64,000 bases of DNA from an uncultured Methanoregulaceae archaeon (GCA_963717525.1 OY970343.1:1504001-1568000); one strand, 5' to 3'; shown: positions 7,414 through 28,062, numbered from the stretch's first letter. The notes: generated by a model not told the origin, from the letters alone. Made by a program: numbers and translations.

Positions 7414-9336
7414 ATGAATCAGACTACACGAACGGTCGCACTCATTCAGATGGAGATCGGGCCGGATCCGGACAGCAACCTCAAAACTGCGCTTGAGCGT
7501 GTTGAACATGCCGCACGGAACGGGGCACAGTTCATCTGCCTGCCCGAATTGTTCCGTACCCGGTACTTCCCGCAGCAGATAGGTGTAAACGCAGAGCCGT
7601 TTGCCGAGACTATTCCCGGTGAATCGACGCAGGCATTTGCCCGGCTCGCCCGTGACTATGCGGCGGTTATCATTGTCCCTGTCTTTGAACGGTCTCCTTC
7701 TGGACAGTTCTTCAATGCAGCAGTCGTGATCGATGCAGATGGCAGTCTCCATGCTTCCTACCATAAGGTACACATCCCCCAAGATCCGAAATTTTTTGAA
7801 AAAGGGTATTTTTATCCCGGAGATCACTATGCCGTGCATACTACCCGGTATGGGAGGATTGCCGTTCTCATCTGCTACGACCAGTGGTTCCCCGAGGCGG
7901 CACGGTGCGTTGCCCTTGACGGGGCGGAGATCATATTCTACCCAACGGCAATCGGGAATCCCTGCACGGATCCACCATCAGAGGGGGACTGGCAGGAAGC
8001 ATGGGAGCTGATCCAGCGCAGCCACGCCATCGCAAACAGCGTGCATATCGCAGCCGTCAACCGGGCAGGCCGGGAAGGAGATATCCAGTTTTTCGGGGGA
8101 TCCTTTGTCTGCGACGCGTTCGGGAAACTGCTCGCCCATGCCGGCGATACCGGGGAGACGATCACTGCCACGATCGATCTTGGGATAAACGACACGATCC
8201 GGGATTCGTGGGGATTTTTCAGGAACCGCCGCCCGGACACCTACGGTACCGTTTGTGCCCGTGTGCCCGGATACGATGCGACGGCACCGATTCCCGGGAA
8301 AGGGGATACACCGAGGAAACTGGGTTTTTTCATGCCTGCCGAGTGGGAGCAGCACGATGCGGTCTGGTTATCGTGGCCACACAACAAAAACACCTTCCCG
8401 AACCTCCCTCCTGTCGAGGATACCTACGTCAGGTTCATTGCCGGGATAGTCCCCTCAGAACGGGTTGAACTGTTCGTTCCCACGCCAGTGATAAACCGGA
8501 TGGTAAAAGCGCGCCTGAAAAGCGCCGGTATCGAACTGTCCCGGATCACGATCCGGACCATCCCCTACTCCGACGTATGGATCCGCGATTATGGTCCGAC
8601 GTTCGTGGTAAACCCGGCCCTGAAAAGATCGGCAATGGTACGCTGGGAGTTCAATGCGTGGGGCGAAAAATACGAGGACCAGATCGCTGACGGACATGTC
8701 CCCGCTGACATGAACCGGTGGCTTGACCTGCCCGTCTTCAGGCCACAAATTATTCTCGAAGGCGGGTCAATCGACACCAACGGCAGGGGTACGGTGCTGA
8801 CCACACGCTCCTGCCTTCTCAACCAGAACCGGAACCCGAATCTCACGAAGGACGAGATCGAGGAGTACCTCAGGGAATACCTCGGGGCAATAAAAATTAT
8901 CTGGCTCAACCAGGGCATCGCGGGCGATGATACCGATGGTCATATCGATGATATCGCGAGGTTTGTTGCGCCATCCACCGTTGTCTGTGCCTGTGAGGAA
9001 AATCCTGCCGATGAAAATTACGCGGCTCTCAGAGAAAATTTTGAGATCCTGAATTGTGCAACCGACCAGGAGGAAAAACCATTCACGGTGATAAAACTCC
9101 CTATGCCGGCTCCCGTTGTCATCGGTGATGAACGGTGCCCGGCAAGTTACACGAACTTCTATATCGGGAACACCGTGGTAATCGTTCCGGTCTTTGATGA
9201 CCCCCATGACGGGGAGGCCATCCGCATCATCCAGGAACTCTTCCCGGAACGGACGGTTGTTGGAATAAACGCCCGTGCGATGGTAGAAGGATCCGGGACG
9301 TTCCATTGCGCAACCCAGCAGCAGCCCCGGCCGTGA
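7414..9336 (+). CDS. aguB-aguA: Fused N-carbamoylputrescine amidase (nitrilase fold) and agmatine deiminase
   Basis: N-half: LPELF, YHKVHIP, ICYDQWFPE (Glu-Lys-Cys triad), NRRPDTY. C-half: MPAEWE.H, WIRDYGP, EGGSI, DTDGHIDD, SYTNF, GTFHCATQQQP. Confidence 0.93.
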   Translation: MNQTTRTVALIQMEIGPDPDSNLKTALERVEHAARNGAQFICLPELFRTRYFPQQIGVNAEPFAETIPGESTQAFARLARDYAAVIIVPVFERSPSGQFFNAAVVIDADGSLHASYHKVHIPQDPKFFEKGYFYPGDHYAVHTTRYGRIAVLICYDQWFPEAARCVALDGAEIIFYPTAIGNPCTDPPSEGDWQEAWELIQRSHAIANSVHIAAVNRAGREGDIQFFGGSFVCDAFGKLLAHAGDTGETITATIDLGINDTIRDSWGFFRNRRPDTYGTVCARVPGYDATAPIPGKGDTPRKLGFFMPAEWEQHDAVWLSWPHNKNTFPNLPPVEDTYVRFIAGIVPSERVELFVPTPVINRMVKARLKSAGIELSRITIRTIPYSDVWIRDYGPTFVVNPALKRSAMVRWEFNAWGEKYEDQIADGHVPADMNRWLDLPVFRPQIILEGGSIDTNGRGTVLTTRSCLLNQNRNPNLTKDEIEEYLREYLGAIKIIWLNQGIAGDDTDGHIDDIARFVAPSTVVCACEENPADENYAALRENFEILNCATDQEEKPFTVIKLPMPAPVVIGDERCPASYTNFYIGNTVVIVPVFDDPHDGEAIRIIQELFPERTVVGINARAMVEGSGTFHCATQQQPRP

Positions 9337-10568: not shown

Positions 10569-11118
10569 TTATCTGGGCCGTGCGCGTCTGGAGGGCGGGG
10601 AAAGAAGAGACTTGGCCTTCCTTTTTGGGGAGTCCTCCCGCCGTACCTGTGCAAGTTCAGGCTCAAACCACGCCCCGATACACTGCCTGACCACGCCTAG
10701 ACACGCATCACTGTCCAGGAATATCGCACCGATGATGGCTTCCATCGTATCGGCAAGGATCTTCTCTTCCCCGGACTTCCAGAGATCCTTTTCCCCGCGC
10801 CCAAGCCGGATGAACCGTTTGATCTTCATGCGCCTGCCGATCTTTGCAAGGCTGATATTATCCTCAAGTTGTTCCTTTGTCCGGGTTATCGCACCCTTTT
10901 CCTGGAGCCCTTTCTCCATTAAAAACAGGATCAGGCTGGTCTTGAGCACGGCATCCCCGAGAGTACGTATAGGCTTCCTGGGTCAGGCAGATCCGGTTCT
11001 GCTGGATAAGTTCGTTTGCATAGGCAGGATGCGTTAGCGCCCGGATCAGGTGCTGCCGCTCGAAAAAATGATAGCCTATGATACGCTCTATGGCCTGAAC
11101 ATCGTCCTTTTTTTCCAT
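10569..11118 (-). CDS. rnc: RNase III catalytic-domain protein without dsRBD; apparent +1 frameshift near 10968
   Basis: IERIIGYHF...RALTHPAY in one frame. Removing one base gives QEAYRTLGDAVLK, continuing to LADTMEAIIGAIFLD. Confidence 0.82.
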
Positions 11119-11157
11119 AATCTTCACTTAAGCCGTTAGCGGATGACGACATAAAGA

Positions 11158-12643: not shown

Positions 12644-13613
12644 CTATCCTTTTTTACCCAGAACCCGGATGATCGCATCGCCGAACTCCCGGGTCCCGGC
12701 CGATCCCCCGATGTCCCGGGTCCGGATACCGGACGAAAGAACCGTGGTGATGGCAGCCTCTAACCGGGCAGAACCTTCATTGTCCCCAAGGTAGGCGAGG
12801 AGCATCGCTGCGCTCCGCAGGGCTGCAACGGGATTTGCACTGTTTTTCCCGGCAATATCCGGGGCGCTGCCGTGGACCGGCTCAAACAAGGCATACCGGT
12901 CCCCGATATTTGCGCTCGGCACAAGACCCAAGCCCCCGACAAGGTAGGAGGAGACATCAGAGAGGATATCGCCAAAGATGTTCGTGGTCACGATCACATC
13001 GTATGCCCCGGGATGCTGGAGGATATCGAGACTGAGGGCGTCGATGAACTTGTCATTGTACAGTTACTCCGGCCTTTTTTGCCTCCTCAATACAGATATC
13101 CCGGAAGAAAACGTCGGATTTGAGCACATTTGCCTTGTGCCCGATGGTGAGTTTTCCCTGCCGCTGACGGGCACACCGGATCGCCGCCCGCGCAATTCGT
13201 TCGGTTCCTTTCCGGGTCACCACCCGGAGCGTGGTCGCACGATCAGGACCAATCTCCTCGATTCCTGAGTACAGCCCTTCGGTATTCTCCCTGACGATCA
13301 TCAGGTCAAAGCCGTCACCCCGGACCGGTCGCAGGTTTGCGAACAGGTCAAGCGCTTTCCTGATCCTCAGGACAATACTCTGGTAATCTTTCATCGGCGG
13401 AGTCGTGACCGCCCCGAAGAGGACGGCATCCGCCGTTTTGAGTTCGGAGATGTCGCCATCTGCACAGGGGCATCCGGTCTGCTCCCAGCGCCCGTACCCG
13501 ACCTCGACCGGGAAATATTCGTACTCGGGATGGAGCAGTTCGAGAGCCTGCTGCGCAACCGGGATCACCTCGTGGCCGATCCCGTCGCCTTCGACAATGG
13601 CGATCCGCGTCAT
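12644..13613 (-). CDS. aksF: (Homo)n-isocitrate dehydrogenase AksF; apparent +1 frameshift near 13064
   Basis: GDGIGHEV, LFANLRP, RENTEGLY, HKANVLK, then after one extra base DKFIDAL...TTNIFGDILSD, FEPVHGSAPDIAGK. The aksF call rather than leuB rests on operon context. Confidence 0.8.
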
Positions 13614-14410
13614 TGTGCCCTCCACCGGCTGACCAGTTCCTGCACCGAACGTGCGATCTTTGCGGGACTTGCGCCCCAGTGGACGATCGCCCCGAATTTC
13701 CCCTTCCAGGTACCTAGTCCTTCCCGTTCAGACCGGCAACACCGGGCGATAAACGGTTCTTCTGCGACCTGCTCGAGGGGACAGATGTTTTCGAGCACAA
13801 AATCCGTCCCGTAGCACTCCGTGCAGAACTGTTTTGCCGTAAGACAGCCGGCTACCCGTTCGCCACCCTGCAGGGGATCGGCATCCAGTGTCCGTGTATA
13901 CCCGGCGGCCCGGCAGGGATAGACATCGGCAGGCACCGTTGTTATATCCCGGATATGGTGATCGAATACCACCGAGAGCTCCCCGAAGAGGCCGATCGCC
14001 TCCATCTCTTTCAAAGCCGCCGACAGGGTCGGCCGGGGCGGGAGAACATCGTAGACATGTACGGTGAGGAATCCCGAAAGATCGGGATCGAGCACAAACG
14101 TCATGTTCTCCTCAAGACCCGTGAAAACAGTACACCGGCACCCACTTTCTATCGCGAGACGCACCAGCCGGGCCCGGTCGTTGAGCTGCACTTTCTCCGG
14201 GTAATGACAGGCTTCCTCTGGTGTCGCCAGTATCCTCGACGAAATGATCTCCCGCATGACGTGATTTTTTGCCGGATCAAGGGAAACTTCGAGAAGTTCG
14301 CACCCCCGGTCTGTCTCCTTCAGGAGATACCGGCTCAGGGTATAGACCCGGTCGCCGCAGGGTCTGGCGGAGGCGACCCCGACAACCTTGCAGTGTTCAG
14401 GAAAGATCAC
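13610..14410 (-). CDS. Cys-rich conserved hypothetical protein inside the aks operon
   Basis: GTG start overlaps the aksE stop and its stop overlaps the aksF start; motifs YPCRAAG, AGCLTAKQFCTECYG, NICP, ARCCRSE, VHWG. Confidence 0.75.
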   Translation of the reverse strand: MIFPEHCKVVGVASARPCGDRVYTLSRYLLKETDRGCELLEVSLDPAKNHVMREIISSRILATPEEACHYPEKVQLNDRARLVRLAIESGCRCTVFTGLEENMTFVLDPDLSGFLTVHVYDVLPPRPTLSAALKEMEAIGLFGELSVVFDHHIRDITTVPADVYPCRAAGYTRTLDADPLQGGERVAGCLTAKQFCTECYGTDFVLENICPLEQVAEEPFIARCCRSEREGLGTWKGKFGAIVHWGASPAKIARSVQELVSRWRAQ

Positions 14411-14877
14411 CGGTGAGCCCTCCAGTACTCGACAAGGCCGCCGGCGTAAAGGATCTCCTGCATACGGGGAGACAATGGGTGGATTGTATGCCGTTTCCCA
14501 CCAGTGTCTACCCAGCCACCCGACAGGTCGAATATAACCGGGCTTCCTTCTTCGCAGGCCAAGTCCGACTCGATGAGGGGGAGCCCGATATTGATCGCAT
14601 TCCGGAAGAAAATCCGTGCAAAAGACGGGGCGATGACAGCGACAACCCCGGCTTCCCGGAGGGCTAGGGCAGCCTGCTCCCTCGAAGAGCCGCACCCGAA
14701 ATTTTTACCGGCGACAATCACGGCCCCTTTGAGCCGGGGGGCAAGCGCGGGGTCGAGATCCTCCAATACGTGGGTTGTCCAGATGCTCCGGTCCTTGGTC
14801 CGCAGGTACCGGCCGGCGATGATGAGATCGGTATCAATATCCGCCGGGAGACACACGGCGGTTCCTCTGCCCTGCAT
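14407..14877 (-). CDS. aksE: Homoaconitase small subunit
   Basis: DIDTDLII, NFGCGSSREQA, SFARIFFRNAINIG. The flexible loop reads YLRT, the homoaconitase-type determinant in methanogens. Confidence 0.85.
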   Translation of the reverse strand: MQGRGTAVCLPADIDTDLIIAGRYLRTKDRSIWTTHVLEDLDPALAPRLKGAVIVAGKNFGCGSSREQAALALREAGVVAVIAPSFARIFFRNAINIGLPLIESDLACEEGSPVIFDLSGGWVDTGGKRHTIHPLSPRMQEILYAGGLVEYWRAHR

Positions 14878-16088
14878 TATCCTGCCTCCGGCGAAGCGAT
14901 CTCCCCTTCAAGGGCGCTTGCTGCAGCTGTAGCGACAGAGCCAAGATAGATCTCCCCGCCGACACCCATACGGTTCCTGAAATTCCGGTTGGCAGTCGAG
15001 AGGCAGACCTCGCCTTCCCCGAGCACACCCATATGGTACCCGAGGCAGGGGCCGCACCCGGGCGTCCCGATGCTGCACCCGCCTCCAACGATATCGGCGA
15101 GCACCCCCGTGCGGATCGCCTTTTCGAGAACCAAGGCAGACGCCGGGACGACGATGGTCCGTACGGCCACCTTCCTGCCCCTGACCATCCGGGCGAACCG
15201 GGCGAGATCAGAATACCTGCCGTTCGTGCAGGTACCAACAAAGACCTGGTCAAGCGGCAGGCCTGCAAGGGTATCCACGGGCTTGACCGTGTCCACCCGG
15301 TGGGGGATAGCAACCAGCGGCACGATGTCGGCAAGATCCAGATCGAGTTCCTGACGGTACGAACACGGTGAGGCCTCCTGAGAGGAGACCTCATGCCCGT
15401 GCTCCTTCAGGTATCTGACGGTCACATCATCTGCATAAAAGAGCCCGGCCTTTGCCCCGGCTTCGACGGAAAGATTCGAGAGGACGAGGCGTTCGTCCAT
15501 GGAGAGGTGGCGCACTCCGTCCCCCACAAACTCGAGTGCCTGGTAGGTCGCCCCGTCCATGCCGAGTTTAGCCACGTAGGCAAGCGCGAGGTCCTTTGCT
15601 TCCGCCGCCCCCGTAAACCTCCCGGCCAGGTGGATACCCAACGATTCGGGGACACGGAACCAGGTCTCCCCGGTCAGCCAGATCGCTGCCATATCGGTTG
15701 CACCCACACCGGTAGCAAACGCCCCGAACGCCCCCAGCGTGACGCTGTGCGAGTCTGCCCCGACTACTATCTCACCGGGCAGGACTACCCCCTCCCCCAT
15801 CAGCTGGTGGCAGATCCCGCAACCGACATCGGAGAACTGCATGAAGGAGCTTCTCGCAAAATCCCTCAGCTCGTGCTGGAGGGTTGCCGTTGTGCCGTTG
15901 TTGGCCGGGGCGATATGATCAAACTGGATATAATACCCGGTCTCTTCTCCCAGCCGGTCTCCTCCCATCTCTTTCCAGGCTTCCAGAGCAAGGACGCCGG
16001 TCCCATCGTGGGCATATGCCCTGTCAACCTTCCGGTCGACGTATTCCCCTGCGGTTGCGCCAAGGATACGTTCGGAGAGCGTGCTCAT
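14877..16088 (-). CDS. aksD: Homoaconitase large subunit
   Basis: HDGT, GICHQ, GADSHS, VGTCTNGR, PGCGPCLG, STANRNF.NRMG aconitase-family motifs. Confidence 0.85.
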   Translation of the reverse strand: MSTLSERILGATAGEYVDRKVDRAYAHDGTGVLALEAWKEMGGDRLGEETGYYIQFDHIAPANNGTTATLQHELRDFARSSFMQFSDVGCGICHQLMGEGVVLPGEIVVGADSHSVTLGAFGAFATGVGATDMAAIWLTGETWFRVPESLGIHLAGRFTGAAEAKDLALAYVAKLGMDGATYQALEFVGDGVRHLSMDERLVLSNLSVEAGAKAGLFYADDVTVRYLKEHGHEVSSQEASPCSYRQELDLDLADIVPLVAIPHRVDTVKPVDTLAGLPLDQVFVGTCTNGRYSDLARFARMVRGRKVAVRTIVVPASALVLEKAIRTGVLADIVGGGCSIGTPGCGPCLGYHMGVLGEGEVCLSTANRNFRNRMGVGGEIYLGSVATAAASALEGEIASPEAG

Positions 16089-17216
16089 GCCGGGGTCTCC
16101 CGTTGCGCCCGCCGGATCAGTTTCCGGAGTATCTCGGGGGTGATGCTGCATTTCTGTTCGGAATGTTCCTTGACAAGGTCGAGGACGCGGCAGATCTGGG
16201 CCCCGGAGAGATCCTCGCCCAGTGACGCGATTACGTGCTCAAGCGCCTTTCTCCCGGTGTGCTTCCCAAGGATGAAGTGACGCTCACTGCCCACCAGGTC
16301 CGGGGGGAAGTACCTGGTACGTGGCAGGGTCTTCGAGGATTGCGGCGATGTGGATGCCACTCTCGTGCGAAAAGGCGAGTTCCCCTGTGACCGGCTTGTT
16401 CTTCGGGAGCGCTATACCTGAATACTTTTCCACCTTCCGGGAGAGGGCGAAGAGGTGCGAGAGGTCATACCGGTCGATGCCGCCCTTGGTTCGCAGGATG
16501 ACCAGTACCTCTTCAAGCGAGGCATTACCCGAACGTTCGCCAATACCGTTAACGGTCGTGTGCAGCTGGAAGGCCCCGGCCTGTGCCGCTGTGATCGTGT
16601 TTGCGACAGCGCAGCCCATATCGTTGTGGCAGTGGGCGCAGAACGGCCGGTCGACAGAAGAGACAAGATCGGTCATGATCGTGCGCATCTCGTCCGGGAT
16701 CAGGCATCCCACCGTATCGGCAAAACTGAGCAGAACAGCCCCGTGGTCGGCTGCCCTCCGGTATACTTCCTTGAGAAACACAAGGTCTGTCCGTGACGCG
16801 TCCTCTGCTGCAAACCGCACGGCAACCCCGTGGTCCCGGGCAAAATCAATCATCACAAGGGCATCCTCGAGCACCTTCTCCCGGGGTTTCTTGAACTTGA
16901 CCCGGACGTGGAGATCTGAGGTCGGGATAAAGATGGAGACCATGTCGACATCGCAGTCGATTGCTGTGGTGATATCCTCTTTTTTTGCCCGGGCAAAACC
17001 GCATATCCGGGCATCAAGCCCAAGGTTTGCGATGGTTTTTACACACTGTTTCTCGTTTTCAGAGACTGCCGGGAACCCGGCCTCGATTACTTCGACGCCG
17101 ACACAATCCAGTGTCCGGGCGATATCCACCTTCTCTTCGCAGGAGAATGACACGCCGGGTGTCTGTTCCCCGTCTCTCAGCGTTACATCACAGATCTCAA
17201 TATTCCACGGTTTCAT
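16085..17216 (-). CDS. aksA: Homocitrate synthase AksA; apparent +1 frameshift near 16313
   Basis: DVTLRDGEQTPG, HCHNDMG, GIGERSGNA, FSHESGIH, then YQ/YFPPDLVG...LGKHTG. No LeuA/CimA C-terminal regulatory domain. Confidence 0.85.
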
Positions 17217-18468
17217 GGTGTGCTCCCTTGGGGCATTCCGCCTCCACGACAATGGTCTTCGGTGCATCCGGGATATGGATCACCTCGTGGAGGCGGCGTT
17301 CATCATTCGCATGACAGAGGACCGGGTCGGCCCAGCGGATGTAAGGGACCGGATCGCTCACCTTCTGACCACCGGTCATCGCGGCGCAGTGATTCTTCAT
17401 CACGATGCACAGGAGCGGGAGTCCCTTCTCATACACATCGATAAGGGCATTCAGGCCCGAGTGGAGCAGTGCGTAGTCGCCGATCAACGCCACGTGTGTG
17501 CTTCGTGCAGCGACCGCGATACTTGACCCCATACCATAGCTGGCAACACCCAGTCCATAGGGGGGTTTCAGCCCGAATACCGAGCAACCCGCGTCGCAGA
17601 TCAGGTGCATGTCCCGTCCTTTGAGGATATCCAGCAGGGGCCGGTACGGGCAGTCTAAACAGAACGTCCGGCCAAATCCCCGGTCTTTTTGTGATTCCGG
17701 CCGCCCCTGCGGTCCCGGTGGCAGGATAGCCCGGTGATCCCGGACAAAGGACCGGCCGTACTCCTTCACCTCATGGAACGGTGCAGCACGGGCCGGTACC
17801 GGGTTCACGGTCACGACCCGGGAGTCCCCCGGCGCCGGACCGGCGCCCAGGGTATCCCCCTTCCACCGGTTCAGGGGCGATGCGTCCGACCATGCAAACA
17901 TCGTCCTAGAGATCTCTGCAGCAGCAGTGACCCTGCCATGCATGGTCCAGCTCCGGTCGGCGAGTCTTCCCATACCCTCATTCCGGAGAGCCGGGATTAC
18001 CGTGACCTCAGCGTCCAGCAGCTGCGGCGTGAGCCGGAGCATAGCAACCCGGGAGAAGGTCTCCGATGCAGTCAGCGCTGCTTCAACCCCGGCAAAACAT
18101 GTGGTCTCGTCAGGTTCGATCACGGGAATCTCCGCCAGTTCCCCGTAATACCGGGAGTCCTGTGCCGTCTGGGAGCCTTTAGATTCGGGATCGTCACCGA
18201 CGACAAGAAGTACTCCACCCCGGATACCCTGCACCGTGGCCTGGACAAGCGGGTCGGCGCAGGCGTTCACGCCAACGTTTTTTATAATGACGGCAGCTCG
18301 TCTGCCGGCGAGAGAATCGCCCAGTGCATATTCGAGGGCGGTCTTTTCGTTTATGACAAACTCTGCCCGGGTTAATGTGCCAAGTTCCGTCACCGGGAAA
18401 CCCGGGACGGTATACTGCCGGTCCGTTCCGGCAGAGATCGCTGCAGCCAGCGCCCCGACTCCCTTCAT
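17197..18468 (-). CDS. ThDP-dependent enzyme, shortened IorA-like (no ferredoxin tail, no beta/gamma partner)
   Basis: VPGFPVTE, NEKTALE, K.VGVN..ADP, GDDP...SQ..QDSR, FCLDCPYR, DAGC, and GDYALLHSG...N ThDP-binding motif. Confidence 0.85.
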   Translation of the reverse strand: MKGVGALAAAISAGTDRQYTVPGFPVTELGTLTRAEFVINEKTALEYALGDSLAGRRAAVIIKNVGVNACADPLVQATVQGIRGGVLLVVGDDPESKGSQTAQDSRYYGELAEIPVIEPDETTCFAGVEAALTASETFSRVAMLRLTPQLLDAEVTVIPALRNEGMGRLADRSWTMHGRVTAAAEISRTMFAWSDASPLNRWKGDTLGAGPAPGDSRVVTVNPVPARAAPFHEVKEYGRSFVRDHRAILPPGPQGRPESQKDRGFGRTFCLDCPYRPLLDILKGRDMHLICDAGCSVFGLKPPYGLGVASYGMGSSIAVAARSTHVALIGDYALLHSGLNALIDVYEKGLPLLCIVMKNHCAAMTGGQKVSDPVPYIRWADPVLCHANDERRLHEVIHIPDAPKTIVVEAECPKGAHHETVEY

Positions 18469-19433
18469 TCATCCCTCCCGGGCACAAGATCGCAGCCTGC
18501 ACAGGTCGTGCACATGGTAAGAGCACCGGCGGTATCCAGTCCGGCACGGGCAAGGGCCTGGCGGTGTATGGCAAAGAGTTTCCTGAGCCTCCCGGCAGAT
18601 GGCCGGGGTCTCCCGGCACATCCCGCCACCGGGTTGAGCGGCCGGAGCACCGGGATCACCCCACGCGACGTGAGCCGGTTGATGCAGGCCTCCATCTCTG
18701 CATCAGTCTCTCCAAGCCCTACGATAACATTGGAAAATACCCGGCCCTTACCGAAGAGTTCCACGGACCGGTCGAGAACCCGCCACAGGCAGTCGTAGTC
18801 AAGACCCGGGCACATCTCTGCAAAGAGCTCCGGGGTGGCCGCCTCGATATTGAATTTAACCTCTGTCACACCGAGGGCATGGAGCTTATCCGGGGTCTGG
18901 TCGGTCGGGTAGATTGACACACCAATGGGCAGGCCAAAGAACTTCAGGTGACCGATGACCTCACAGACATAGGACTCCTCCTCCCCGATGCTCTCCAGGA
19001 CACCGCTCGTGAGCGATATAGCGCCGACCCGGTGCCGGACCGATTCGACGAGATCCATGATCTCCTTTACGGTTTTACGTTTACCGGCAAGCCGGGGGAC
19101 AGAGCAGTAGCGGCAGGAGAAGATGCAGCCCTCCGTAACGGTAATAAAAGCCTGGTCCGGGCAGTGAAGCCCCGGCTGGAGGAGCCGGCCCGAAATCTGC
19201 CGGTCCTCAAAAAAGAGATCGGCAACCCCGCCCCCCCGGTGGGCGATCTCAACAGGGGACGCCGGGTTGATCGCAAGCTTGACCCGGTGGCTGCCCATGG
19301 CAAAAAAGACCGAGCCTTTTCCACCAGCGCCCGGGCCTGCCGTGGATTTTGCAAGGTAATCCTCTGCTGGTTCGCCGCTGAGCCGGGCAGAGCCGGCCTC
19401 GAGCAGCCGGGCCTTCAGTTCTTCCCACTGCAT
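18465..19433 (-). CDS. Radical SAM enzyme, biotin-synthase-related, with C-terminal CxxCxxC
   Basis: GCIFSCRYC SAM cluster motif; STAGPGAG N-terminal motif; HCPDQAF; SNVIVGLGE; MCTTCAGCD. Confidence 0.9.
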   Translation of the reverse strand: MQWEELKARLLEAGSARLSGEPAEDYLAKSTAGPGAGGKGSVFFAMGSHRVKLAINPASPVEIAHRGGGVADLFFEDRQISGRLLQPGLHCPDQAFITVTEGCIFSCRYCSVPRLAGKRKTVKEIMDLVESVRHRVGAISLTSGVLESIGEEESYVCEVIGHLKFFGLPIGVSIYPTDQTPDKLHALGVTEVKFNIEAATPELFAEMCPGLDYDCLWRVLDRSVELFGKGRVFSNVIVGLGETDAEMEACINRLTSRGVIPVLRPLNPVAGCAGRPRPSAGRLRKLFAIHRQALARAGLDTAGALTMCTTCAGCDLVPGRDE

Positions 19434-20311
19434 AGTTCCAGCGCCTCCTCGTACCGGATGAAGAACGGCAGGGCAGCCACCGCCCCGGTGATCCCCCGCC
19501 CGTTCATCACAATGCGGAGATGGGGATCTTTGAGAGTCTGCACACGATCCGGAGTCACTTCCCCGCGTTTTACGTCCTTTGCGTAATCCATGAGCTCGTC
19601 TGACAAGGAAAAACCGGTATAGACAGCCATGCCGGTCTTCTCTGAAAGGGTATATTTTTTGAGCAACTCGCAAAACCGCCTAACAAGTTGTTCCGGTACT
19701 GTCGTGGCAAATTCAGCGACAAGACTCACGCAGTTCTTGGTCCGGTACGCCACCGGGAAGAGCTGGACAATCGTATGCGAGAGATAGACAGATTGTTCAT
19801 CCTCAACCGCCCTTGCGATATTGTGGACAAGTGTCCACGTCGCTCCCTCTTCTGCCGTGTCGGTATCATCCACCCCAATCAGAATCCGCTGCCGCCGGGG
19901 CAGCCAGAGCGTGGCACCTGCCACTTTCCCCCCGCCGGAAGGATCACACTGTTCCCGCAGCACACCCCGTGCGGCAGCACGGCAGGAGGTTGCACCCACG
20001 CCACCGCCACCCATACCGATGTAGGTCACCGCAATCTCATTCCTGCTTACCGAGACCCCGGAGATTCCTGCGGGGAACCGGGATCCTTCGAGCGCAAGAT
20101 CGACGGCACCGGGACGGAGCAGGTACCGGGATGTCGATCCCACGCACCTGACACTCTTCACCAGAGGGCTCTGTGCATAATGATGCTGGGTCCACATTGC
20201 GCCCCCGATACAATCGAAGAATTCGATCAGCTCGACCTGGCTCGCGGTCTCATCCGCCACCGCAACGATCCGGGGATACCGGATCACGTACGGATCAGAG
20301 ATGCTCGCCAT
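19415..20311 (-). CDS. Methanogenesis marker protein 11-like (TiaS-type GxDDTD domain), paralogue B
   Basis: IGVDDTD..EEGATW, IVQLFPV.YRTKNC, NGRGITGAVAA; Gly-rich N-domain (GMGGGGVGA.SCR). Confidence 0.8.
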   Translation of the reverse strand: MASISDPYVIRYPRIVAVADETASQVELIEFFDCIGGAMWTQHHYAQSPLVKSVRCVGSTSRYLLRPGAVDLALEGSRFPAGISGVSVSRNEIAVTYIGMGGGGVGATSCRAAARGVLREQCDPSGGGKVAGATLWLPRRQRILIGVDDTDTAEEGATWTLVHNIARAVEDEQSVYLSHTIVQLFPVAYRTKNCVSLVAEFATTVPEQLVRRFCELLKKYTLSEKTGMAVYTGFSLSDELMDYAKDVKRGEVTPDRVQTLKDPHLRIVMNGRGITGAVAALPFFIRYEEALELCSGKN

Positions 20312-21251
20312 ACAGCCCCGCCGCCTCGATTCCCCGGTCTGCCCACAGCACTGCACCGAGCGCTCCGATCCGCCCTTTCCTCCCATTATGGTCGAGATAC
20401 TCGATGCCGAGCCGCTCTGCCTCTTCCTGTGCATTTTCAACGGTAAGGATCTCCGTCTTGATGGCTTTCATGAACGGGGACTCCTGCCCGGTCCCGATAC
20501 CCCGCGAGAATGCGATGCCGGTATCCTTCGAGAAGGTATGATCTTCCACGAACGTGCAGACGAACTCACGAAGTGCACTGATGCTTTCTGGCCGGGCGGC
20601 AAAGGTGAGGGCGGAACCGACACAGTTTGTCGTTTTGCTGGGGACCGCCGGGTTGAGCTGGACAAGCCGCATGGTGAGGAACTCAACGCCTTCGATATGG
20701 CAGGCCTCCGCACATTTTAAGGCCATCACCCATGTGGCACCCTCCTGCCTTGTATCCGTATCATCGATCCCAAACGAGATCTTCTCGTACCTGGGGGATA
20801 CGATCCGGACGTGGTTGGTCCGTGCACCCCCTACCTTAAGGTCTTCTTCTGCCGGGTATTCCGCCCGGATAACCCCCGGCGCCTGAGGGAGGCATGCAGC
20901 AATACCAACACCAGCGCCAGCGATACCTGCCCATGTGGTGATCACCTCATCACCCTTCACTTCCACCGCTTCCAGTGCCTGGCCGCCGATAGTCCCCGCG
21001 GCTGCCCCGAAATTGACCGGGTGGTGGCCGAGGCGTGCCTGCATGGTCATCGAGATCCCTTCCACGGCACACGCTGCCACTGCACCACCGGCGCGGGACC
21101 GGTTCATGGCATCCCACTCAATCGTTCCCCGGGCGTGACACTGCTCAAGGATCTCGGCACGCCCTGCCCTCTCGTCAACCATCACCAGAAATTTCTTTGA
21201 GAAGAGCGGGCCGAACCGCTGCTTCACGCCATCGGGTGTAAGTATGATCAT
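20295..21251 (-). CDS. Methanogenesis marker protein 11-like (TiaS-type GxDDTD domain), paralogue A
   Basis: FGIDDTD..QEGATW, LVQLNPAVPSKTTNC, GRIGALGA; Gly-rich N-domain (GIAGAGVG.AAC). Confidence 0.8.
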   Translation of the reverse strand: MIILTPDGVKQRFGPLFSKKFLVMVDERAGRAEILEQCHARGTIEWDAMNRSRAGGAVAACAVEGISMTMQARLGHHPVNFGAAAGTIGGQALEAVEVKGDEVITTWAGIAGAGVGIAACLPQAPGVIRAEYPAEEDLKVGGARTNHVRIVSPRYEKISFGIDDTDTRQEGATWVMALKCAEACHIEGVEFLTMRLVQLNPAVPSKTTNCVGSALTFAARPESISALREFVCTFVEDHTFSKDTGIAFSRGIGTGQESPFMKAIKTEILTVENAQEEAERLGIEYLDHNGRKGRIGALGAVLWADRGIEAAGLYGEHL

Positions 21252-21294
21252 GTTATCGCCGAAATTTTCGTTAACAAAGTATTCGGCAATAACA
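21251..21294. promoter_or_regulatory. 44-bp imperfect palindrome between the TATA box and the first start codon of the marker-11/aks operon
   Basis: TGTTATCGCCGAA (21251-21263) and TTCGGCAATAACA (21282-21294) are complementary at 12 of 13 positions; (TA)n box at 21295-21303. Confidence 0.6.
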
Positions 21295-21341
21295 ATATAT
21301 ATAGAATTCCATGACTGAGAAAATTTTTGCAGAAAAAGAGA

Positions 21342-22784: not shown

Positions 22785-23957
22785 ATGGCATTATTTCCAA
22801 AGTTTTCCAAAAAGAGGGATGGTGTCAACGTTGTGATGGAGCAGCGCCTCCTTCAGAACGTGAACAACCTGATTCTGAATTCAGAGACCTGCACGGGATG
22901 CGGTATCTGTGTCGAGTCCTGTCCGGAGGATGCAATAGTCCTCGGACTTGTCGGTGCAGCCCGCCGCGGTGCCATCAACTACGCGACGCCTATCGATGTT
23001 GACGAGACCAAGTGCTCGTACTGCGGTGTCTGCGTGATCATGTGCCCGTTCAATGCATTGACTCTGAAAGTCGACAATCAGGAGCGGCTTCCCATTATTG
23101 AAAAAGAGGGATTCCCGCAGTATGACATGAAGGCAGAGATCAATGACGAAAAGTGCGTAAAGTGCACGATCTGCGAAGAGGTCTGCCCGCGTGACGCAAT
23201 CGACCGGAATGTCCCCGCATATGCAGGGACGTACAAGGGACCGGTTGCCGGGGCAAAGGATCGCCAGGCCGCGATCACGACAAAGACCACCTTCACCGTC
23301 GACAAGGAGAAATGCTCCCTGTGCGGCATCTGCGGTGCGCTCTGTCCTGCCATCAGGGTCAAGCACAAAGAATTTACTGCCGAAGCAGGGAAAGTTGAGG
23401 GTGATGTGATCTGGGACGAGACCAAGTGCGACGCCTGCAAGGTGTGCGTAGAAGCCTGCCCCGAGGAATGCATTACCATCGAACGCGAAGTCATATCCGA
23501 CAAGGTAGATGGCAAGGTCAGCATTGTCCAGGACAACTGCTGCACATGTACCTGGTGCTCGCGCAACTGCCCGACCGAGGCAATTACCGTTGAGAAGATC
23601 TTCGAAGGCGACATCGAATTCCACGCCGAAAAGTGTCCCGGCGGCTGTTCGACCTGCGCCGATATCTGCCCGGCAAATGCAATCTATCTTCCGAGCGAGA
23701 AGCCGGCAGCAGACATGAAAGGCGAGATCGAGCCCAGCATTGCCGTCAACAAGGACTACTGCATTCTCTGTGGTGCCTGCGTGAATGCCTGCCCCGGTGA
23801 AGATATCATCATCCTCCAGCGGACCGGCATCCGGATGAAAGGAACGGAGACGGACCTCTTCAAGAAGATCAAGGAGAAACTCTTTGCGAAGAGAACCTCG
23901 AAGGTGAAGGAAGGCATTGCCGGACAGGTCGGACTAAAAATGATGGAGAAGGCGTGA
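22785..23957 (+). CDS. fwdF: Formylmethanofuran dehydrogenase polyferredoxin subunit F
   Basis: Eight CxxCxxCxxxCP-type motifs; precedes hdrCBA. Confidence 0.9.
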   Translation: MALFPKFSKKRDGVNVVMEQRLLQNVNNLILNSETCTGCGICVESCPEDAIVLGLVGAARRGAINYATPIDVDETKCSYCGVCVIMCPFNALTLKVDNQERLPIIEKEGFPQYDMKAEINDEKCVKCTICEEVCPRDAIDRNVPAYAGTYKGPVAGAKDRQAAITTKTTFTVDKEKCSLCGICGALCPAIRVKHKEFTAEAGKVEGDVIWDETKCDACKVCVEACPEECITIEREVISDKVDGKVSIVQDNCCTCTWCSRNCPTEAITVEKIFEGDIEFHAEKCPGGCSTCADICPANAIYLPSEKPAADMKGEIEPSIAVNKDYCILCGACVNACPGEDIIILQRTGIRMKGTETDLFKKIKEKLFAKRTSKVKEGIAGQVGLKMMEKA

Positions 23958-23969
23958 GGGAGGACGAAC

Positions 23970-24551
23970 ATGGCAAGATCAAAAGGTTACCCGGAAGCGC
24001 TGGAGAAAAAACTCCACGATCAGCGGTTTTACCGTGAGGATTCTACACCCGACTTCACAAAAAAGGTCGAGGCATCTTCACGCACCATTGCCCACATGTG
24101 CTACCAGTGCGGTACCTGCACCGGATCGTGCCCGTCAGCACCCCGGAGCACCTACCGCATCCGCAAGTTCATGCGGAGAGCAGTCCTTGGGCTCGAGAAT
24201 GAGGCTCTCACCGATCCCGATCTCTGGCTCTGCACCACCTGTTACAGCTGCACCGACCGGTGCCCGCGTGACATCGCACCCACCGACGTTATTATGTCCA
24301 TGAGGAACATGGCATTCACCCGCGATATCATACCGGTGAACTTCCTCAAGACCGTGCAGGCGATCTACAGCTCCGGCCACGGTGTGCCCAATAACGATGT
24401 CAACCGTGCAGCCCGGGAGAGGCTCGGACTCACCCGCGACCCGCCGACCACCCACATGTATCCTGAATACATGCCGGCGATCAGGAAGATCATCGACCAC
24501 TACAACCTCAAGGCAAATGCCGACAGGATTGTCAAGGAACGGGAGGGATAA
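23970..24551 (+). CDS. hdrC: Heterodisulfide reductase subunit C
   Basis: CYQCGTCTGSCPS and LWLCTTCYSCTDRCPR. Confidence 0.96.
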   Translation: MARSKGYPEALEKKLHDQRFYREDSTPDFTKKVEASSRTIAHMCYQCGTCTGSCPSAPRSTYRIRKFMRRAVLGLENEALTDPDLWLCTTCYSCTDRCPRDIAPTDVIMSMRNMAFTRDIIPVNFLKTVQAIYSSGHGVPNNDVNRAARERLGLTRDPPTTHMYPEYMPAIRKIIDHYNLKANADRIVKEREG

Positions 24552-24557
24552 GGGAAC

Positions 24558-25481
24558 ATGTCAGAATCCAAAGCAAACCACACGTTCGCGTTATACCTTG
24601 GCTGCATTGCACCGAACCGGTACCCGGGCGTGGAATCTGCAACCATCAAGGGATGCAAGAAACTGGGCGTTGATCTTGTTCCCCTCAAGGGAGCAAGCTG
24701 CTGCCCGGCCCCCGGTGCATTCGGTTCCATCGACCTGAACGTCTTCTATGCAATGGCAGCACGCAACCTTGTGCTCGCCGAGCAGATGAAGACCGATATC
24801 GCCCTTGTCTGCAACGGCTGCTACAAGTCGATCTGGGAAGTCAACCACAAGCTCAAGCACAACCAGGATCTCCGCGATGGCGTCAACGAAGTACTCAAGG
24901 AAGTTGACATGGAGTTCAAGGGCACCATCAATGTCTATCACGTGGCGGAACTCCTCTATAATGAGAAATTCATAGGGGTCGATAAAGTCAAGGACTCCGT
25001 CGTCAACCCCCTGACCGGTGCACGCATTGCCGTCCACTACGGCTGCCACCTGACTAAGCCCCATAAGGACCGTGAGTTCGAAAAGGAGGTCATGTTAAAC
25101 ACCGAGCACCCGACCTGGATGGAAGAACTGGTCGCAGCCCTCGGTGCCACGCCGGTCGAGTACCGCAACAAGATGCAGTGCTGCGGTGCCGGCGGCGGTG
25201 TCCGCGGGTACGACATCGTCCACTCGCTGGATATAACGAACGAGAAGCTGATCAACCTCAAAGAGGAAAAGGTGGATGCGCTGACCGACATCTGCCCGTT
25301 CTGCCAGCTCCAGTTCGACCGCGGCCAGATCGAGATCAAGGAAAAGTTCGGTGTCGAGTACAACTTACCGGTGCTGCACTTTGCCGAGCTGCTCGGGCTG
25401 GCACAGGGAATGAGCCCGCAGGAACTCGGGCTTGACCTGCACGGGATCAGCTGCGAACCGTTCCTGCAGAAGGTGCTGTGA
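24558..25481 (+). CDS. hdrB: Heterodisulfide reductase subunit B
   Basis: Two CCG domains: LGC...SCCPAPG...CNGC and HYGCH...QCCGAGGG...CPFCQLQFD. Confidence 0.96.
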   Translation: MSESKANHTFALYLGCIAPNRYPGVESATIKGCKKLGVDLVPLKGASCCPAPGAFGSIDLNVFYAMAARNLVLAEQMKTDIALVCNGCYKSIWEVNHKLKHNQDLRDGVNEVLKEVDMEFKGTINVYHVAELLYNEKFIGVDKVKDSVVNPLTGARIAVHYGCHLTKPHKDREFEKEVMLNTEHPTWMEELVAALGATPVEYRNKMQCCGAGGGVRGYDIVHSLDITNEKLINLKEEKVDALTDICPFCQLQFDRGQIEIKEKFGVEYNLPVLHFAELLGLAQGMSPQELGLDLHGISCEPFLQKVL

Positions 25482-25491
25482 GGTGGGGAAG

Positions 25492-27642
25492 ATGGTTGAA
25501 AAGAAGAAAACAACTACCAAAAAGACCGAGACCAAGAAGCAGGACACAAAAAAGGAGGCTCCCGTGAAACAGGAAGTCAAAAAACAAGCTCCCGCACCGG
25601 CAGCAAAGGCAGTCGCAGCACCCGGCGCCACCACCAAGCAGGAAGCCCGGATCGGTGTCTTCATCTGCCATTGCGGTACCAACATCGCCGGTTCAATGAA
25701 TATCCCGGCCGTGCAGGAATATGCAAAAACCATCCCGAATGTGGCCTATGTTGACAACTACAAGTATATGTGCTCGATGCCCGGGCAGACGGTGATTAAC
25801 AAGGCAATCAAGGACAACAAGCTGACCGGTGTCGTTGTTGCCGCTTGTTCCCCGCGCCTCCACGAGCCGACATTCAGGACCGCCACCAAAGAGGGTGGCC
25901 TCAACCCGTTCCGGTTCGAGATGGCAAACATCCGTGAGCAGAACTCATGGGTGCATATGCATGACAATGCAGGGTCAACCGACAAAGCAAAGGACGCAAT
26001 CAGGATCGCCGTTGCAAAGGCGTCACTCCTCCAGGACCTCTTCCCGAAAACCGTGCCGGTCGAGAAGGCCGCGATGGTAGTCGGAGCCGGTGTTGCCGGC
26101 ATGCAGGCAGCCCTTGACCTTGCAGCATCAGGAATCAAGACCTATCTCATCGAATCAACGCCAAGTATCGGCGGCAGGATGTCCCAGCTCGACAAGACCT
26201 TCCCGACGCTTGACTGTTCCCAGTGTATCCTCACACCGAAGATGGTGGATGTAGGGCGGAGCAAGGATATCGAGCTCCTGACCTATTCCGAAGTCGATAA
26301 CGTGGAAGGCTATATCGGCAACTTCGATGTCACCATCCGCAAGAAAGCGCGTGGTGTCCTCACTCCCGCAGAAGCGGAAGCCCGTGGGATTGTCGGCGGC
26401 GGCTGTAACGGCTGCGGTGACTGCGAGACAATCTGCCCGGTCATCAAGCCCAATGTGTTCGAAGTCGGGATGAAGCCCCGGAAGGCTATTTATATCAACC
26501 ACCCGCAGGTTGTTCCCCTTATCTACACGATTGACTTTGATTCCTGTATCAAGTGTGGACTGTGCGTGACCGCATGTGGTCCCGAAAAGAAGGCAATCGA
26601 CCTCGAATCAAAGGACGAGTTCATGAAAGTCAAAGTCGGGACGGCAATCCTCGCCACCGGCTACGATATCTTCCCCATCGAGAAAAAAGAAGAATGGGGA
26701 TACAAGCGGTTCGAGAACGTTATCACCAGTCTCGAATTCGAGCGGCTCATCTGCGCATCCGGCCCGACCGGCGGTTACCCTGTCCGCCCGAGTGATGGTG
26801 AGAAACCAAAAAGAGTCGCATTCGTGCTCTGTGCCGGCTCTCGTGACAATACGGGTGTCGGCAAACCCTACTGTTCACGGTTCTGCTGCATGTATTCACT
26901 GAAACATGCCCACCAGCTTGTTGAAAAGATGCCCGGCTGCGTTCCCTATATCTTCTACATGGATATCCGGTCATTCGGCAAGGCGTACGAGGAGTTCTAC
27001 TACCGTATCCAGGATGAAGGCGCGAAGTTCATCCGCGGCCGGGTCGCAAACATCCTCGAGGACCCCAAGACCAAGAACCTCCATGTCTATGCCGACGACA
27101 CCCTGCTCGACCGCCCGGTCGATATGGAAGTCGATCTTGTCGTGCTCGCAGCAGCAATCCAGCCCGCGAGCGACACGGAAAGGACACGGAGACTTTTCGG
27201 TGTTTCCTGTACTGGCGACGGCTGGCTCCAGGAAGCCCACCCGAAACTGAACCCATGCGGAACCACCACGGCCGGTGTCTTCCTTGCCGGTGTCTGCCAG
27301 GGCCCGAAGGATATCCCGGACACGGTAGCATCTGCCGAAGGCGCAGCATCTGCGGCAAGCATCCCGATCCACAAGGGAGAAGTCGAACTCGAGCCGTACT
27401 TCGCTACCTGTATAGAAGAGAAATGTGCAGGCTGCGGCATGTGCGTGAACCTCTGCCCCTACAGTGCCCTTTCTCTCGTAGAGAAGGACGGACGACAGGT
27501 CATGCAGGTCACCGAGGCCAAATGTAAGGGCTGTGGTACCTGCGGCGGTTTCTGTCCCGGTGGCGCAATCTGGATGAACCACTTTGCAACCCCGCAGATC
27601 GTTGCCCAGATCGATGCGTTCCTGCTCGGGGGTGAGCAGTAA
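25492..27642 (+). CDS. hdrA: Heterodisulfide reductase subunit A with Lys-rich N-terminal extension
   Basis: IGVFICHCGTNIAG, ACSPRLHE.TF, NIREQ.SWVH, GAGVAG (FAD), KTFPTLDCSQC, CSRFCCMY, C-terminal ferredoxin domain. Confidence 0.97.
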   Translation: MVEKKKTTTKKTETKKQDTKKEAPVKQEVKKQAPAPAAKAVAAPGATTKQEARIGVFICHCGTNIAGSMNIPAVQEYAKTIPNVAYVDNYKYMCSMPGQTVINKAIKDNKLTGVVVAACSPRLHEPTFRTATKEGGLNPFRFEMANIREQNSWVHMHDNAGSTDKAKDAIRIAVAKASLLQDLFPKTVPVEKAAMVVGAGVAGMQAALDLAASGIKTYLIESTPSIGGRMSQLDKTFPTLDCSQCILTPKMVDVGRSKDIELLTYSEVDNVEGYIGNFDVTIRKKARGVLTPAEAEARGIVGGGCNGCGDCETICPVIKPNVFEVGMKPRKAIYINHPQVVPLIYTIDFDSCIKCGLCVTACGPEKKAIDLESKDEFMKVKVGTAILATGYDIFPIEKKEEWGYKRFENVITSLEFERLICASGPTGGYPVRPSDGEKPKRVAFVLCAGSRDNTGVGKPYCSRFCCMYSLKHAHQLVEKMPGCVPYIFYMDIRSFGKAYEEFYYRIQDEGAKFIRGRVANILEDPKTKNLHVYADDTLLDRPVDMEVDLVVLAAAIQPASDTERTRRLFGVSCTGDGWLQEAHPKLNPCGTTTAGVFLAGVCQGPKDIPDTVASAEGAASAASIPIHKGEVELEPYFATCIEEKCAGCGMCVNLCPYSALSLVEKDGRQVMQVTEAKCKGCGTCGGFCPGGAIWMNHFATPQIVAQIDAFLLGGEQ

Positions 27643-28062
27643 ATGTCTGACGAGTGGAAACCCAAGATCCTCGGCATGGTCTGCAACTGGTGTTCCTATG
27701 CAGGGGCCGACCTCGCCGGCGGCGGTCGTATCCAGTACCCCCCGGACATCAGGATTGTCCGTGTGATGTGCACCGGCCGTCTTGACTCCCTTTTCGTCCT
27801 CAAGGCGTTTGCCGATGGGGCGGATGGAGTCCTCATCTCCGGGTGTCACTTCGGGGACTGCCACTACCTTGAAGGTAACTACAAGGCAGCAAAGAGAATG
27901 TTCATGGTCAAGAGACTCATGAAGAGCATCGGCCTCGACGACCGGCGGTTCCGGATGACGTTTGTCTCTGCATCAGAAGGTGCAAAATGGGCAAAAGTCG
28001 TAACAAACGTCGTTGACACCGTAAAAGAACTCGGGCCGAGCCCGCTTACGGAAAACAAGTGA
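27643..28062 (+). CDS. mvhD: MvhD [2Fe-2S] subunit
   Basis: CNWCSYAGADLAG, RVMCTGR, GADGV..SGCHFGDCHY.EGN, SASEG. Confidence 0.96.
   Translation: MSDEWKPKILGMVCNWCSYAGADLAGGGRIQYPPDIRIVRVMCTGRLDSLFVLKAFADGADGVLISGCHFGDCHYLEGNYKAAKRMFMVKRLMKSIGLDDRRFRMTFVSASEGAKWAKVVTNVVDTVKELGPSPLTENK

Follow-up and report, generated by a model that had tools for sequence, protein, structure and literature searches.

A conserved operon in Methanomicrobiales joins the Aks chain-elongation genes with candidate genes for late steps of coenzyme B synthesis

Which genes complete the synthesis of coenzyme B (CoB) once its carbon chain has been built? CoB is needed by methyl-coenzyme M reductase (MCR), and it is established that orthologs of AksA, AksD/E and AksF convert 2-oxoglutarate to 2-oxosuberate. 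The question is raised by an operon in a 64,000-nucleotide stretch of DNA from an uncultured Methanoregulaceae archaeon (GCA_963717525.1 OY970343.1:1504001-1568000; hereafter the window, with positions counted from its first letter). In this operon four aks genes are joined with five others, which encode two relatives of methanogenesis marker 11 (m11A and m11B), a radical SAM (S-adenosylmethionine) protein, a thiamine diphosphate (ThDP) enzyme derived from IorA and a DUF7714 protein. We conclude, with a probability of roughly 0.7, that this is a conserved CoB operon in which the ThDP enzyme, the radical SAM protein and m11B would be the core late-step genes; their proposed chemistry is read from fold, motifs, gene order and joint loss. 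The operon is probably not the complete CoB pathway, nor a universal one.

RESULTS

The operon and the conservation of its gene order

The nine minus-strand genes (21251-12644) run in the order m11A, m11B, radical SAM, IorA-like ThDP, aksA, aksD, aksE, DUF7714, aksF, and all eight junctions overlap, by 17, 19, 4, 20, 4, 1, 4 and 4 bases in gene order. This layout agrees with an initial annotation, made from the sequence alone, which had described nine genes in this order with every junction overlapping. The genes are as follows.

20295..21251, minus strand: marker-11 paralog A (m11A), TIGR03280 below cut-off, PF22641; candidate accessory protein with a putatively novel N-terminal domain and a TiaS kinase domain, DDTD at 163
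19415..20311, minus strand: marker-11 B (m11B), the true ortholog of methanogenesis marker 11, TIGR03280 above cut-off
18465..19433, minus strand: radical SAM protein, PF04055; CxxxCxxC at 103/107/110, C-terminal CxxCxxC at 308/311/314
17197..18468, minus strand: IorA-derived ThDP enzyme, TPP_enzyme_C
16085..17216, minus strand: aksA, homocitrate-synthase type, HMGL fold by family scan; extra base near 16314
14877..16088, minus strand: aksD (hacA), homoaconitase large subunit, hacA_fam 443 bits, above cut-off
14407..14877, minus strand: aksE (hacB), homoaconitase small subunit with YLRT loop; best PDB match 2PKP
13610..14410, minus strand: DUF7714 protein, XcbA homolog, PF24830
12644..13613, minus strand: aksF, homoisocitrate dehydrogenase type, Iso_dh match in two pieces; extra base near 13062

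The order of the operon is the same in all 20 Methanomicrobiales loci, from six families, and because it is kept throughout, the clustering is not due to chance. All nine genes are complete in 14 of these loci, and m11A is missing from the other six. Where the operon order is not kept, DUF7714 still has aksE, aksF or both as neighbors in 17 of 18 loci; the exception is a 3.5-kb contig. Similarly, the ThDP gene has 38 copies in four families (f7, f10, f14 and f23) that we infer to be Methanosarcinales- and Methanocellales-like, and it lies within 5 kb of m11 in 30 of them, within 8 kb of DUF7714 in 14, and near one or the other in all 38; the threshold of this search (E 1e-105) excluded the shorter form of the gene in Methanomicrobiales, such that a lack of matches in that order does not mean that the gene is missing. 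Two f14 loci (L060 and L063) carry eight of the nine genes in another order and on both strands. In one genome (G024, locus L040), DUF7714 and aksF form one open frame of ~590-600 aa, a possible fusion or read-through.

A related arrangement is found in Thermoproteota (Methanomethylicia and relatives), in which 13 of 16 m11 loci read aksD-aksE-ThDP enzyme-m11-FAD (flavin adenine dinucleotide) oxidoreductase, often after aksA-mtxX; a YLR[ST] loop was parsed in 12 of these 13, and one locus (L262) has the full mtxX-aksA-D-E-F set. These loci are kin, some of them repeats, and count as one or two events. Their ThDP enzyme has the acetolactate-synthase fold and is unrelated to the IorA-derived one. 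A second phylum thus fills this slot with another ThDP family, which would suggest that the same chemistry has been recruited twice. The FAD oxidoreductase that always comes after m11 in these loci (L109, 7963-9132, and 12 others) is GMC-like; in the thiol step it may stand in for DUF7714 or for the radical SAM protein.

The chain-elongation genes are of the Aks type

Four lines of evidence separate the window's chain-elongation genes from those for leucine and citramalate. The small subunit (aksE) has the loop YLRT, and its best PDB match is the homoaconitase small subunit 2PKP, whereas the isopropylmalate isomerase 3VBA has YLVY; among the small subunits of Methanomicrobiales, 20 of 21 carry YLRT (one was unparsed), and YLR[TS] is present in 17 of 17 cluster copies from other Halobacteriota. 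The aksA protein is 374-379 aa in 21 relatives and has no regulatory domain, compared with ~490-520 aa for LeuA/CimA; aksF is 316-334 aa in the same number of relatives. The same genome has separate leuCDB (C1:69146-71975), leuA and cimA genes. Finally, aksA falls outside the LeuA/CimA clade and aksD, aksE and aksF fall outside the LeuC, LeuD and LeuB clades, in trees that are quick trees for aksA and aksF. We thus read the window set as Aks-type genes, a second set beside Leu/Cim.

The initial annotation had favored Aks over Leu/Cim from the YLRT loop and the absence of the regulatory domain, a view that the loop, lengths, trees and separate genes uphold. It had also held that its proposal would suffer if the clustering were unique to this genome or if the aks-like genes grouped with LeuA/CimA-LeuCD-LeuB; at the sequence level, the genes cluster in 20 of 20 Methanomicrobiales loci and are regrouped in other families, and the trees place them elsewhere.

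A natural deletion removes three of the five extra genes together with aks

In one lineage of Methanomicrobiaceae, m11B, the radical SAM gene, the ThDP gene and all aks genes are lost together. We sampled 39 genomes of this family (f4), seven of them from one genus (g14), in which three small genomes have m11A but no m11B (G321, 91% complete; G323, 89%; G324, 74%). Six other genomes of the family also lack m11B over the cut-off; the one that was checked (G315) reflects a contig break. The three loci read hdr...ftr-m11A-DUF7714-aldehyde dehydrogenase, mid-contig, while in two sisters (G320 and G322) the same flanking genes enclose the full set of nine. Two separate stretches have been lost, from m11B to aksE, and aksF; DUF7714 is spared and keeps all five of its cysteines, and hdrCBA and ftr remain adjacent. 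Genome-wide, neither m11B nor the radical SAM gene (present in both sisters) was found in any of the three. When the operon was used as a DNA query, m11A was its only match in these genomes, against many matching segments in the other four of the seven, although this search has limited sensitivity and missed the diverged DUF7714. Since Ftr is 97-99% identical among the three genomes, they represent one loss event.

The nearest named relatives of this lineage are a Methanomicrobium sp. (82%), a Methanomicrobiaceae archaeon (80%) and Methanoplanus limicola (79%). The accessible part of a review (PMC10658910) lists CoB, and also biotin, among the growth requirements of Methanomicrobium mobile, with coenzyme M (CoM) not among them, and it cites a paper whose title says that CoB substitutes for the 'mobile factor' of this organism; the same text also calls the nature of that factor unknown. 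Judged from its family and a genome size of 1.7 Mb, the reduced lineage may be the CoB-requiring M. mobile group. Host-associated Methanocorpusculum is a possible second loss, as aks-type genes are enriched in environmental compared to host-associated members of that genus (PMC10035134, available text).

The ThDP enzyme is a candidate 2-oxosuberate decarboxylase

The ThDP protein scores 144 bits against IOR_alpha (cut-off 650.9), and its sequence found no match in a search of the PDB. In the alignment, E41, G330-D331...N359 and C270/C273/C295/C412 are invariant, and we take the four cysteines to resemble the proximal cluster of 2-oxoacid oxidoreductases. The protein has no C-terminal ferredoxin domain, and the operon has no IorB partner; a full-length IorA-like paralog is encoded elsewhere in the genome (C1:1598009). 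The simplest reading of these features is that the enzyme probably decarboxylates 2-oxosuberate to the semialdehyde, with an oxidative variant of the reaction possible.

The radical SAM and DUF7714 proteins are candidates for the thiol step

The radical SAM protein matches PF04055 (57 bits, cut-off 29.5) and has the canonical CxxxCxxC triad together with a C-terminal CxxCxxC that is invariant in the alignment. Its nearest models are variant_rSAM, LipS2 and MSMEG_0568, all below cut-off (LipS2 64 of 270 bits; BioB 20 of 225), and its nearest solved relatives are LipA, BioB, ThiH and HydE. In four of seven loci of one family (f15), it lies directly after L-ASST (two identified by Pfam, two by size and place), an adjacency that suggests a part in sulfur handling; in four loci of this family (L235:5109-7678, L237, L239 and L243) the radical SAM gene overlaps the end of L-ASST (HcyBio-CBS). 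We consider the protein a candidate for sulfur mobilisation or delivery, the least certain reaction of the five; with an aldehyde as the intermediate, the chemistry would not call for sulfur to be inserted by a radical mechanism.

The DUF7714 protein matches the XcbA family model NF052538 with E 3e-12 and 46 bits (cut-off 150), and an ortholog in L063 reaches 78. A plasmid search with a DUF7714 ortholog matched 5 of 72,556 records; the two matches that were inspected (Xanthobacter and Mycolicibacterium) lie in CoM clusters and score 464 and 439 against the XcbA model. Five cysteines (C166, C189, C210, C224 and C225) are invariant between the DUF7714 protein and two bacterial XcbA proteins. Fold searches with the model of the protein gave a best Z of 7.2 and no Foldseek match at E ≤0.001, a result that does not tell a known fold from a new one. 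XcbA itself carries a [2Fe-2S] cluster and forms CoM by reducing sulfoethanethioaldehyde (PMC9457059, portion available). The initial annotation saw in this Cys-rich protein an Fe-S helper of the radical SAM enzyme; we prefer to read it as a thioaldehyde reductase of the XcbA type. We propose it as a candidate Fe-S thioaldehyde/disulfide reductase, possibly shared by CoB and CoM chemistry; if it also served CoM synthesis or CoB salvage, this would account for its presence in the reduced lineage.

Marker 11 carries a TiaS-type kinase domain and occurs with MtxX

Against TIGR03280 (cut-off 255.8), m11B scores 333.8 bits and m11A 184.9. The two are 29-34% identical over local alignments, and m11A is an old, separate clade in the tree; no m11A-type match was found elsewhere in the six genomes whose operon lacks it, and none in families f7, f10 and f23. 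The m11B model (predicted local distance difference test score, pLDDT, 92) matches TiaS (3AMT) over residues 140-298, with Z 19.6 and a root-mean-square deviation of 2.2 Å for 153 aligned residues, and both m11 copies keep the DDTD and A-T-W segments of the TiaS kinase domain. The 138-residue N-terminal domain had no structural match in searches with the full-length model; a PDB search with the m11B sequence gave no match. Atlas searches gave only scores under 0.8. Against the full-length TiaS model NF040849, m11A scores 47 of 600 bits and m11B has no match; the genome's own TiaS is at C1:1840150.

TiaS phosphorylates a carbonyl oxygen, after which an amine displaces the phosphate, and it also phosphorylates its own threonine. 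CoB needs the same two ATP chemistries, the order of its late steps being reportedly set out in White's work. From the modeled fold, m11B is a candidate ATP-dependent 7-mercaptoheptanoate:threonine ligase and/or kinase.

MtxX (marker 4), which has a phosphotransacylase-like domain and is encoded outside the operon (C1:1087787-1088551), is a sixth candidate. The m11A gene adjoins mtxX in 10 of 10 f14 genomes, and mtxX and m11 occur together in 74 genomes (75 m11-positive and 76 mtxX-positive), including the same six genomes of family f8. Among non-methanogens, MtxX is reported in Ferroglobus (PMC4153887, in the part available). Outside the window, we also observed a third marker-11-like paralog (G000, C1:723789-724958; ~390 aa), extended at its N terminus by a region that is helix-turn-helix-like by eye. 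It occurs across Methanomicrobiales and in family f20, where m11B is missing, and could have a regulatory function in sensing CoB or a precursor.

Phylogenetic profile

The profile rests on one draw of 151 genomes of the phylum, 80 of them with mcrA. Overall, m11 is over the cut-off in 74 genomes, DUF7714 is found in 65, the radical SAM gene in 99 and mtxX in 76; among the 80 mcrA-bearing genomes, the counts are 66 for m11, 62 for DUF7714 and 79 for the radical SAM gene. The MCR-bearing f15 genomes in which the radical SAM gene overlaps L-ASST have no m11B, mtxX or DUF7714, and no YLRT small subunit in the two that were tested. In three Geoglobus-type loci (L073:12028-15175, L074, and L101 from Geoglobus sp. 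UBA235), genes for cysteate synthase, comDE and a sulfonate-binding protein come right after m11 and the radical SAM gene. Two Archaeoglobi genomes (G085 and G090) have no mcrA match; these Archaeoglobi may lack MCR and yet produce CoM, perhaps along with a thiol resembling CoB.

Neighborhood of the operon and assembly errors

The end of ftr lies 90 bases upstream of the operon, followed by fwdF, hdrCBA, mvhD and mcrBDCGA at 22785-33347, with mtrEDC at 43596-46189 in the same window. The initial annotation had placed the operon beside ftr, hdr and mcr, as we confirm. The 90-base gap between ftr and m11A (21252..21341, minus strand) has a T-run and, ~45 bases before the m11A start, an AT-rich TATA-like stretch, and read by eye it is probably the ftr terminator with the operon promoter.

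Both aksA and aksF are interrupted by one surplus base, near 16314 and 13062, a feature absent from the initial annotation. Because these bases are missing in public-run contigs (in four of four runs at 16314 and three of three covering runs at 13062; the stretch's DNA may itself derive from three of the four runs), the frameshifts are assembly errors, and all operon genes are intact in the organism. A pseudogene status of aksA and aksF was therefore rejected, mcrA and mcrB being split alike: mcrB (28329-29760) and mcrA (31661-33347) each run across two frames. The same is true of cimA and the cysteate synthase gene elsewhere in the genome, and an RNase III-like gene in pieces (10569-11152) is probably another assembly frameshift. 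With many such single-base errors, pseudogene calls in this genome are unsafe. The window also holds a 640-aa fusion of N-carbamoylputrescine amidase-like and agmatine deiminase-like parts (7414-9336) and, shortly past the mcr operon, a TIGR04083 peptide-modifying radical SAM enzyme (35407-36699).

DISCUSSION

A possible route to CoB

The genes would fit a route that, as PMC3087415 gives it in the part available, passes through 2-oxosuberate and its semialdehyde. AksA, AksD/E and AksF, judged here from orthologs, would convert 2-oxoglutarate to 2-oxosuberate, from which the IorA-derived ThDP enzyme would probably form the C7 semialdehyde. Sulfur would then be placed on the aldehyde carbon and the resulting thioaldehyde reduced to 7-mercaptoheptanoate. 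The radical SAM protein, whose membership in the pathway we consider somewhat more probable than its absence, would supply or handle the sulfur, and the chances are even that the XcbA-like DUF7714 protein does the reduction, with a second use to account for its being kept where the pathway is lost; COG1900 enzymes (L-ASST/MMP16) may act here too. The kinase domain of m11B, a protein that probably belongs to the pathway, would phosphorylate the carboxylate for coupling to the threonine amine, and/or the threonine hydroxyl. An accessory or partner module, for salvage or another ATP step, could be formed by m11A and MtxX. As a tentative and rather doubtful extension, the last CoB steps would be carried out by repurposed enzymes (the IorA-derived ThDP enzyme, the radical SAM protein with the XcbA-like reductase, and the stand-alone TiaS domain of m11, acting as amide ligase for small molecules and as threonine kinase, perhaps with MtxX), and the deleted lineage would be the auxotroph M. 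mobile, a natural knockout keeping DUF7714 and m11A for CoM synthesis or CoB salvage.

Evidence against the proposal and alternative explanations

A number of observations weigh against the proposal of a conserved CoB operon with these core genes. Among the 80 mcrA-bearing genomes, 14 (in f12, f15 and f20) lack m11 over the cut-off, no YLR[TS] small subunit was found in the three of these 14 that were tested, and 18 lack DUF7714. Conversely, four f8 genomes without an mcrA match have m11, the radical SAM gene and mtxX, and the genes that follow the m11/radical SAM pair in Geoglobus-type loci (L101, from a named Geoglobus, L073 and L074) are for CoM. Methanobacteriota also use CoB, and in 81 of their genomes neither DUF7714 nor a radical SAM ortholog was found, only weak distant radical SAM relatives in nine; a Methanocaldococcus jannaschii control likewise has m11 and mtxX and no DUF7714 match. 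The gene set is therefore not universal. The deletion spares m11A and DUF7714 and counts as a single event, in genomes that are 74-91% complete, and small genomes lose many genes. Chadwick et al. (2025; PMC12068725, in the portion available) call the CoB pathway still unknown and suggest MMP16 and/or L-ASST for the thiol, COG1900 enzymes that the same source describes as catalyzing the aldehyde-to-thiol step for CoM (MMP16, ComF) and homocysteine (L-ASST); a COG1900 gene is present elsewhere in this genome.

The identity of the aks genes is also open to objection. In the trees, they form no supported common clade with the Methanocaldococcus enzymes, the forks being open, and the NCBIfam equivalog cut-offs are missed by the large subunit (HacA_Meth, 397 of 550), the small subunit (HacB/HacB2_Meth, 126 and 158 of 230) and an intact relative's aksF (AksF/AksF2_Meth, 300 of 500 and 324 of 540). 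HacA_Meth is itself imperfect, since it passes a Methanobacteriales protein (L116; 588 over 550) that trees with LeuC, a possible source of mis-annotation. In Methanobacteriales, m11 follows a leuC-leuD-leuB-like aconitase-dehydrogenase-cysteine desulfurase-ribH run (L116:1939-7885), in which 36 of 37 copies of the aconitase show a loop of the Leu type; in the trees this aconitase goes with LeuCD. This cluster was considered as aksDEF and rejected on both counts, and because the aconitase is Leu-type, the linkage lends no support to an Aks link. The m11 linkage to Leu-type genes and the missed cut-offs are what could be said for taking the window genes as leucine, isoleucine (citramalate) or aminoadipate-lysine enzymes in an amino-acid operon. 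We consider this the least credible of the alternatives, given the YLRT loop in 20 of 21 Methanomicrobiales, the separate leuCDB, leuA and cimA genes and the trees; moreover, dapA was found in the genome and covers lysine, while lysW had no match there.

The initial annotation went further than our proposal and suggested that the nine genes are the complete pathway, with one extra gene for each missing step: a decarboxylase, a sulfur-inserting radical SAM enzyme with an Fe-S partner, a ligase and a kinase. The gene count does fit the number of missing chemistries, the full set is present in 14 of 20 Methanomicrobiales loci, both m11 copies keep DDTD and the A-T-W segment, and the retention of m11A and DUF7714 could mean salvage of dephosphorylated or oxidised CoB. 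However, six of 20 operons lack m11A and their genomes gave no A-type match elsewhere (nor did families f7, f10 and f23), m11A and DUF7714 are kept where the pathway is deleted, the 81 Methanobacteriota genomes yielded neither DUF7714 nor an orthologous radical SAM gene, mtxX tracks m11 nearly genome for genome yet lies outside the operon, and the operon has no sulfur donor. Completeness is thus unlikely, and what survives of the suggestion that the five extra genes supply the late steps is that three of them, for the ThDP enzyme, the radical SAM protein and m11B, go with aks and are lost with aks. It is similarly improbable that only the aks genes, perhaps with the ThDP gene, serve CoB, while m11 and the radical SAM gene form a co-regulated module for sulfur or MCR maturation. 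Such a module would account for m11 beside tfuA-ycaO (L076, L087) and beside mcrB (L078, L108), for the radical SAM gene after L-ASST in f15 loci where m11B is missing, and for the m11/radical SAM pair next to CoM genes and in f8 genomes with no mcrA match, but two phyla link m11 with aks genes of the YLR[ST] type, and the reduced lineage lost m11B and the radical SAM gene together with aks while hdrCBA and ftr stayed adjacent. A maturation factor for MCR should not be dispensable in a methanogen, which disfavors that role, mcr being presumed in the three reduced genomes. Finally, the chain could lead to pimeloyl units for biotin or lipoate, by ThDP/Fe-S oxidative decarboxylation and radical SAM sulfur insertion, as the radical SAM protein's nearest solved relatives include lipoyl and biotin synthases (E 5e-9 to 3e-7), the ThDP enzyme keeps its four invariant cysteines and biotin is among the M. 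mobile requirements (PMC10658910, part available). This is very improbable: bioD has no match in this genome and none over the cut-off in five of five genomes, the genome has one biotin/lipoyl domain only, on a carboxylase-sized frame, the LipS2 and BioB scores are far below cut-off, no IorB partner is present in the loci seen, and the genes track mcrA-bearing families.

Significance of the proposed assignment

We found no assignment of these genes to CoB in the literature searched, outside which lie most subscription journals, theses and supplements; none appears in the available parts of PMC9012536, PMC9723716, PMC11237513, PMC12713407, PMC9797515, PMC12900384 and PMC7694415. With three to five named genes, the open CoB pathway becomes directly testable by deletion and chemical rescue. 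If our proposal is correct, methanogenesis markers 11 and 4 would gain functions, a tRNA-modifying kinase fold would have been reused in cofactor synthesis, and CoB auxotrophs would be predictable from genomes. The proposal also bears on the rebuilding of MCR in other hosts and on targets for methane mitigation.

Comparison with known systems

Each part of the operon has a known counterpart. The Aks enzymes of M. jannaschii (AksA, AksD-AksE or HacAB, and AksF; PDB 2PKP) share with the window set a short synthase, a two-subunit aconitase with YLRT and a dehydrogenase; in contrast, all four aks genes are here in one operon with five extra genes, and they belong to a Halobacteriota clade that scores below equivalog cut-offs and does not come out as a supported sister of the Methanocaldococcus enzymes. 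The ThDP enzyme resembles IorA, the alpha subunit of indolepyruvate:ferredoxin oxidoreductase, in its ThDP-binding Glu, its GD...N motif and four conserved cysteines, but it has 423 aa rather than about 590 and lacks both the ferredoxin tail and an adjacent beta subunit. With the LipA/LipS2/BioB/MSMEG_0568 family, the radical SAM protein shares the radical SAM core and a second cysteine triad, although its auxiliary triad is C-terminal and its scores are far below cut-off. The DUF7714 protein is homologous over its full length to XcbA of Xanthobacter autotrophicus Py2 (22-25% identity), with five invariant cysteines and a WG motif, but it is archaeal and is linked to aksE/aksF instead of phosphosulfolactate synthase. 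The COG1900 enzymes MMP16 and L-ASST differ in lying outside the operon and in having no sequence relation to the five extra genes, and the link to L-ASST is one of position, a homolog of the operon's radical SAM gene lying directly after it in f15 genomes. Lastly, the C-terminal half of m11 corresponds to the kinase domain, with DDTD, of TiaS, the tRNA(Ile2) agmatinylcytidine synthetase (3AMT), whereas the tRNA-binding OB and zinc-ribbon parts of TiaS have no place in m11.

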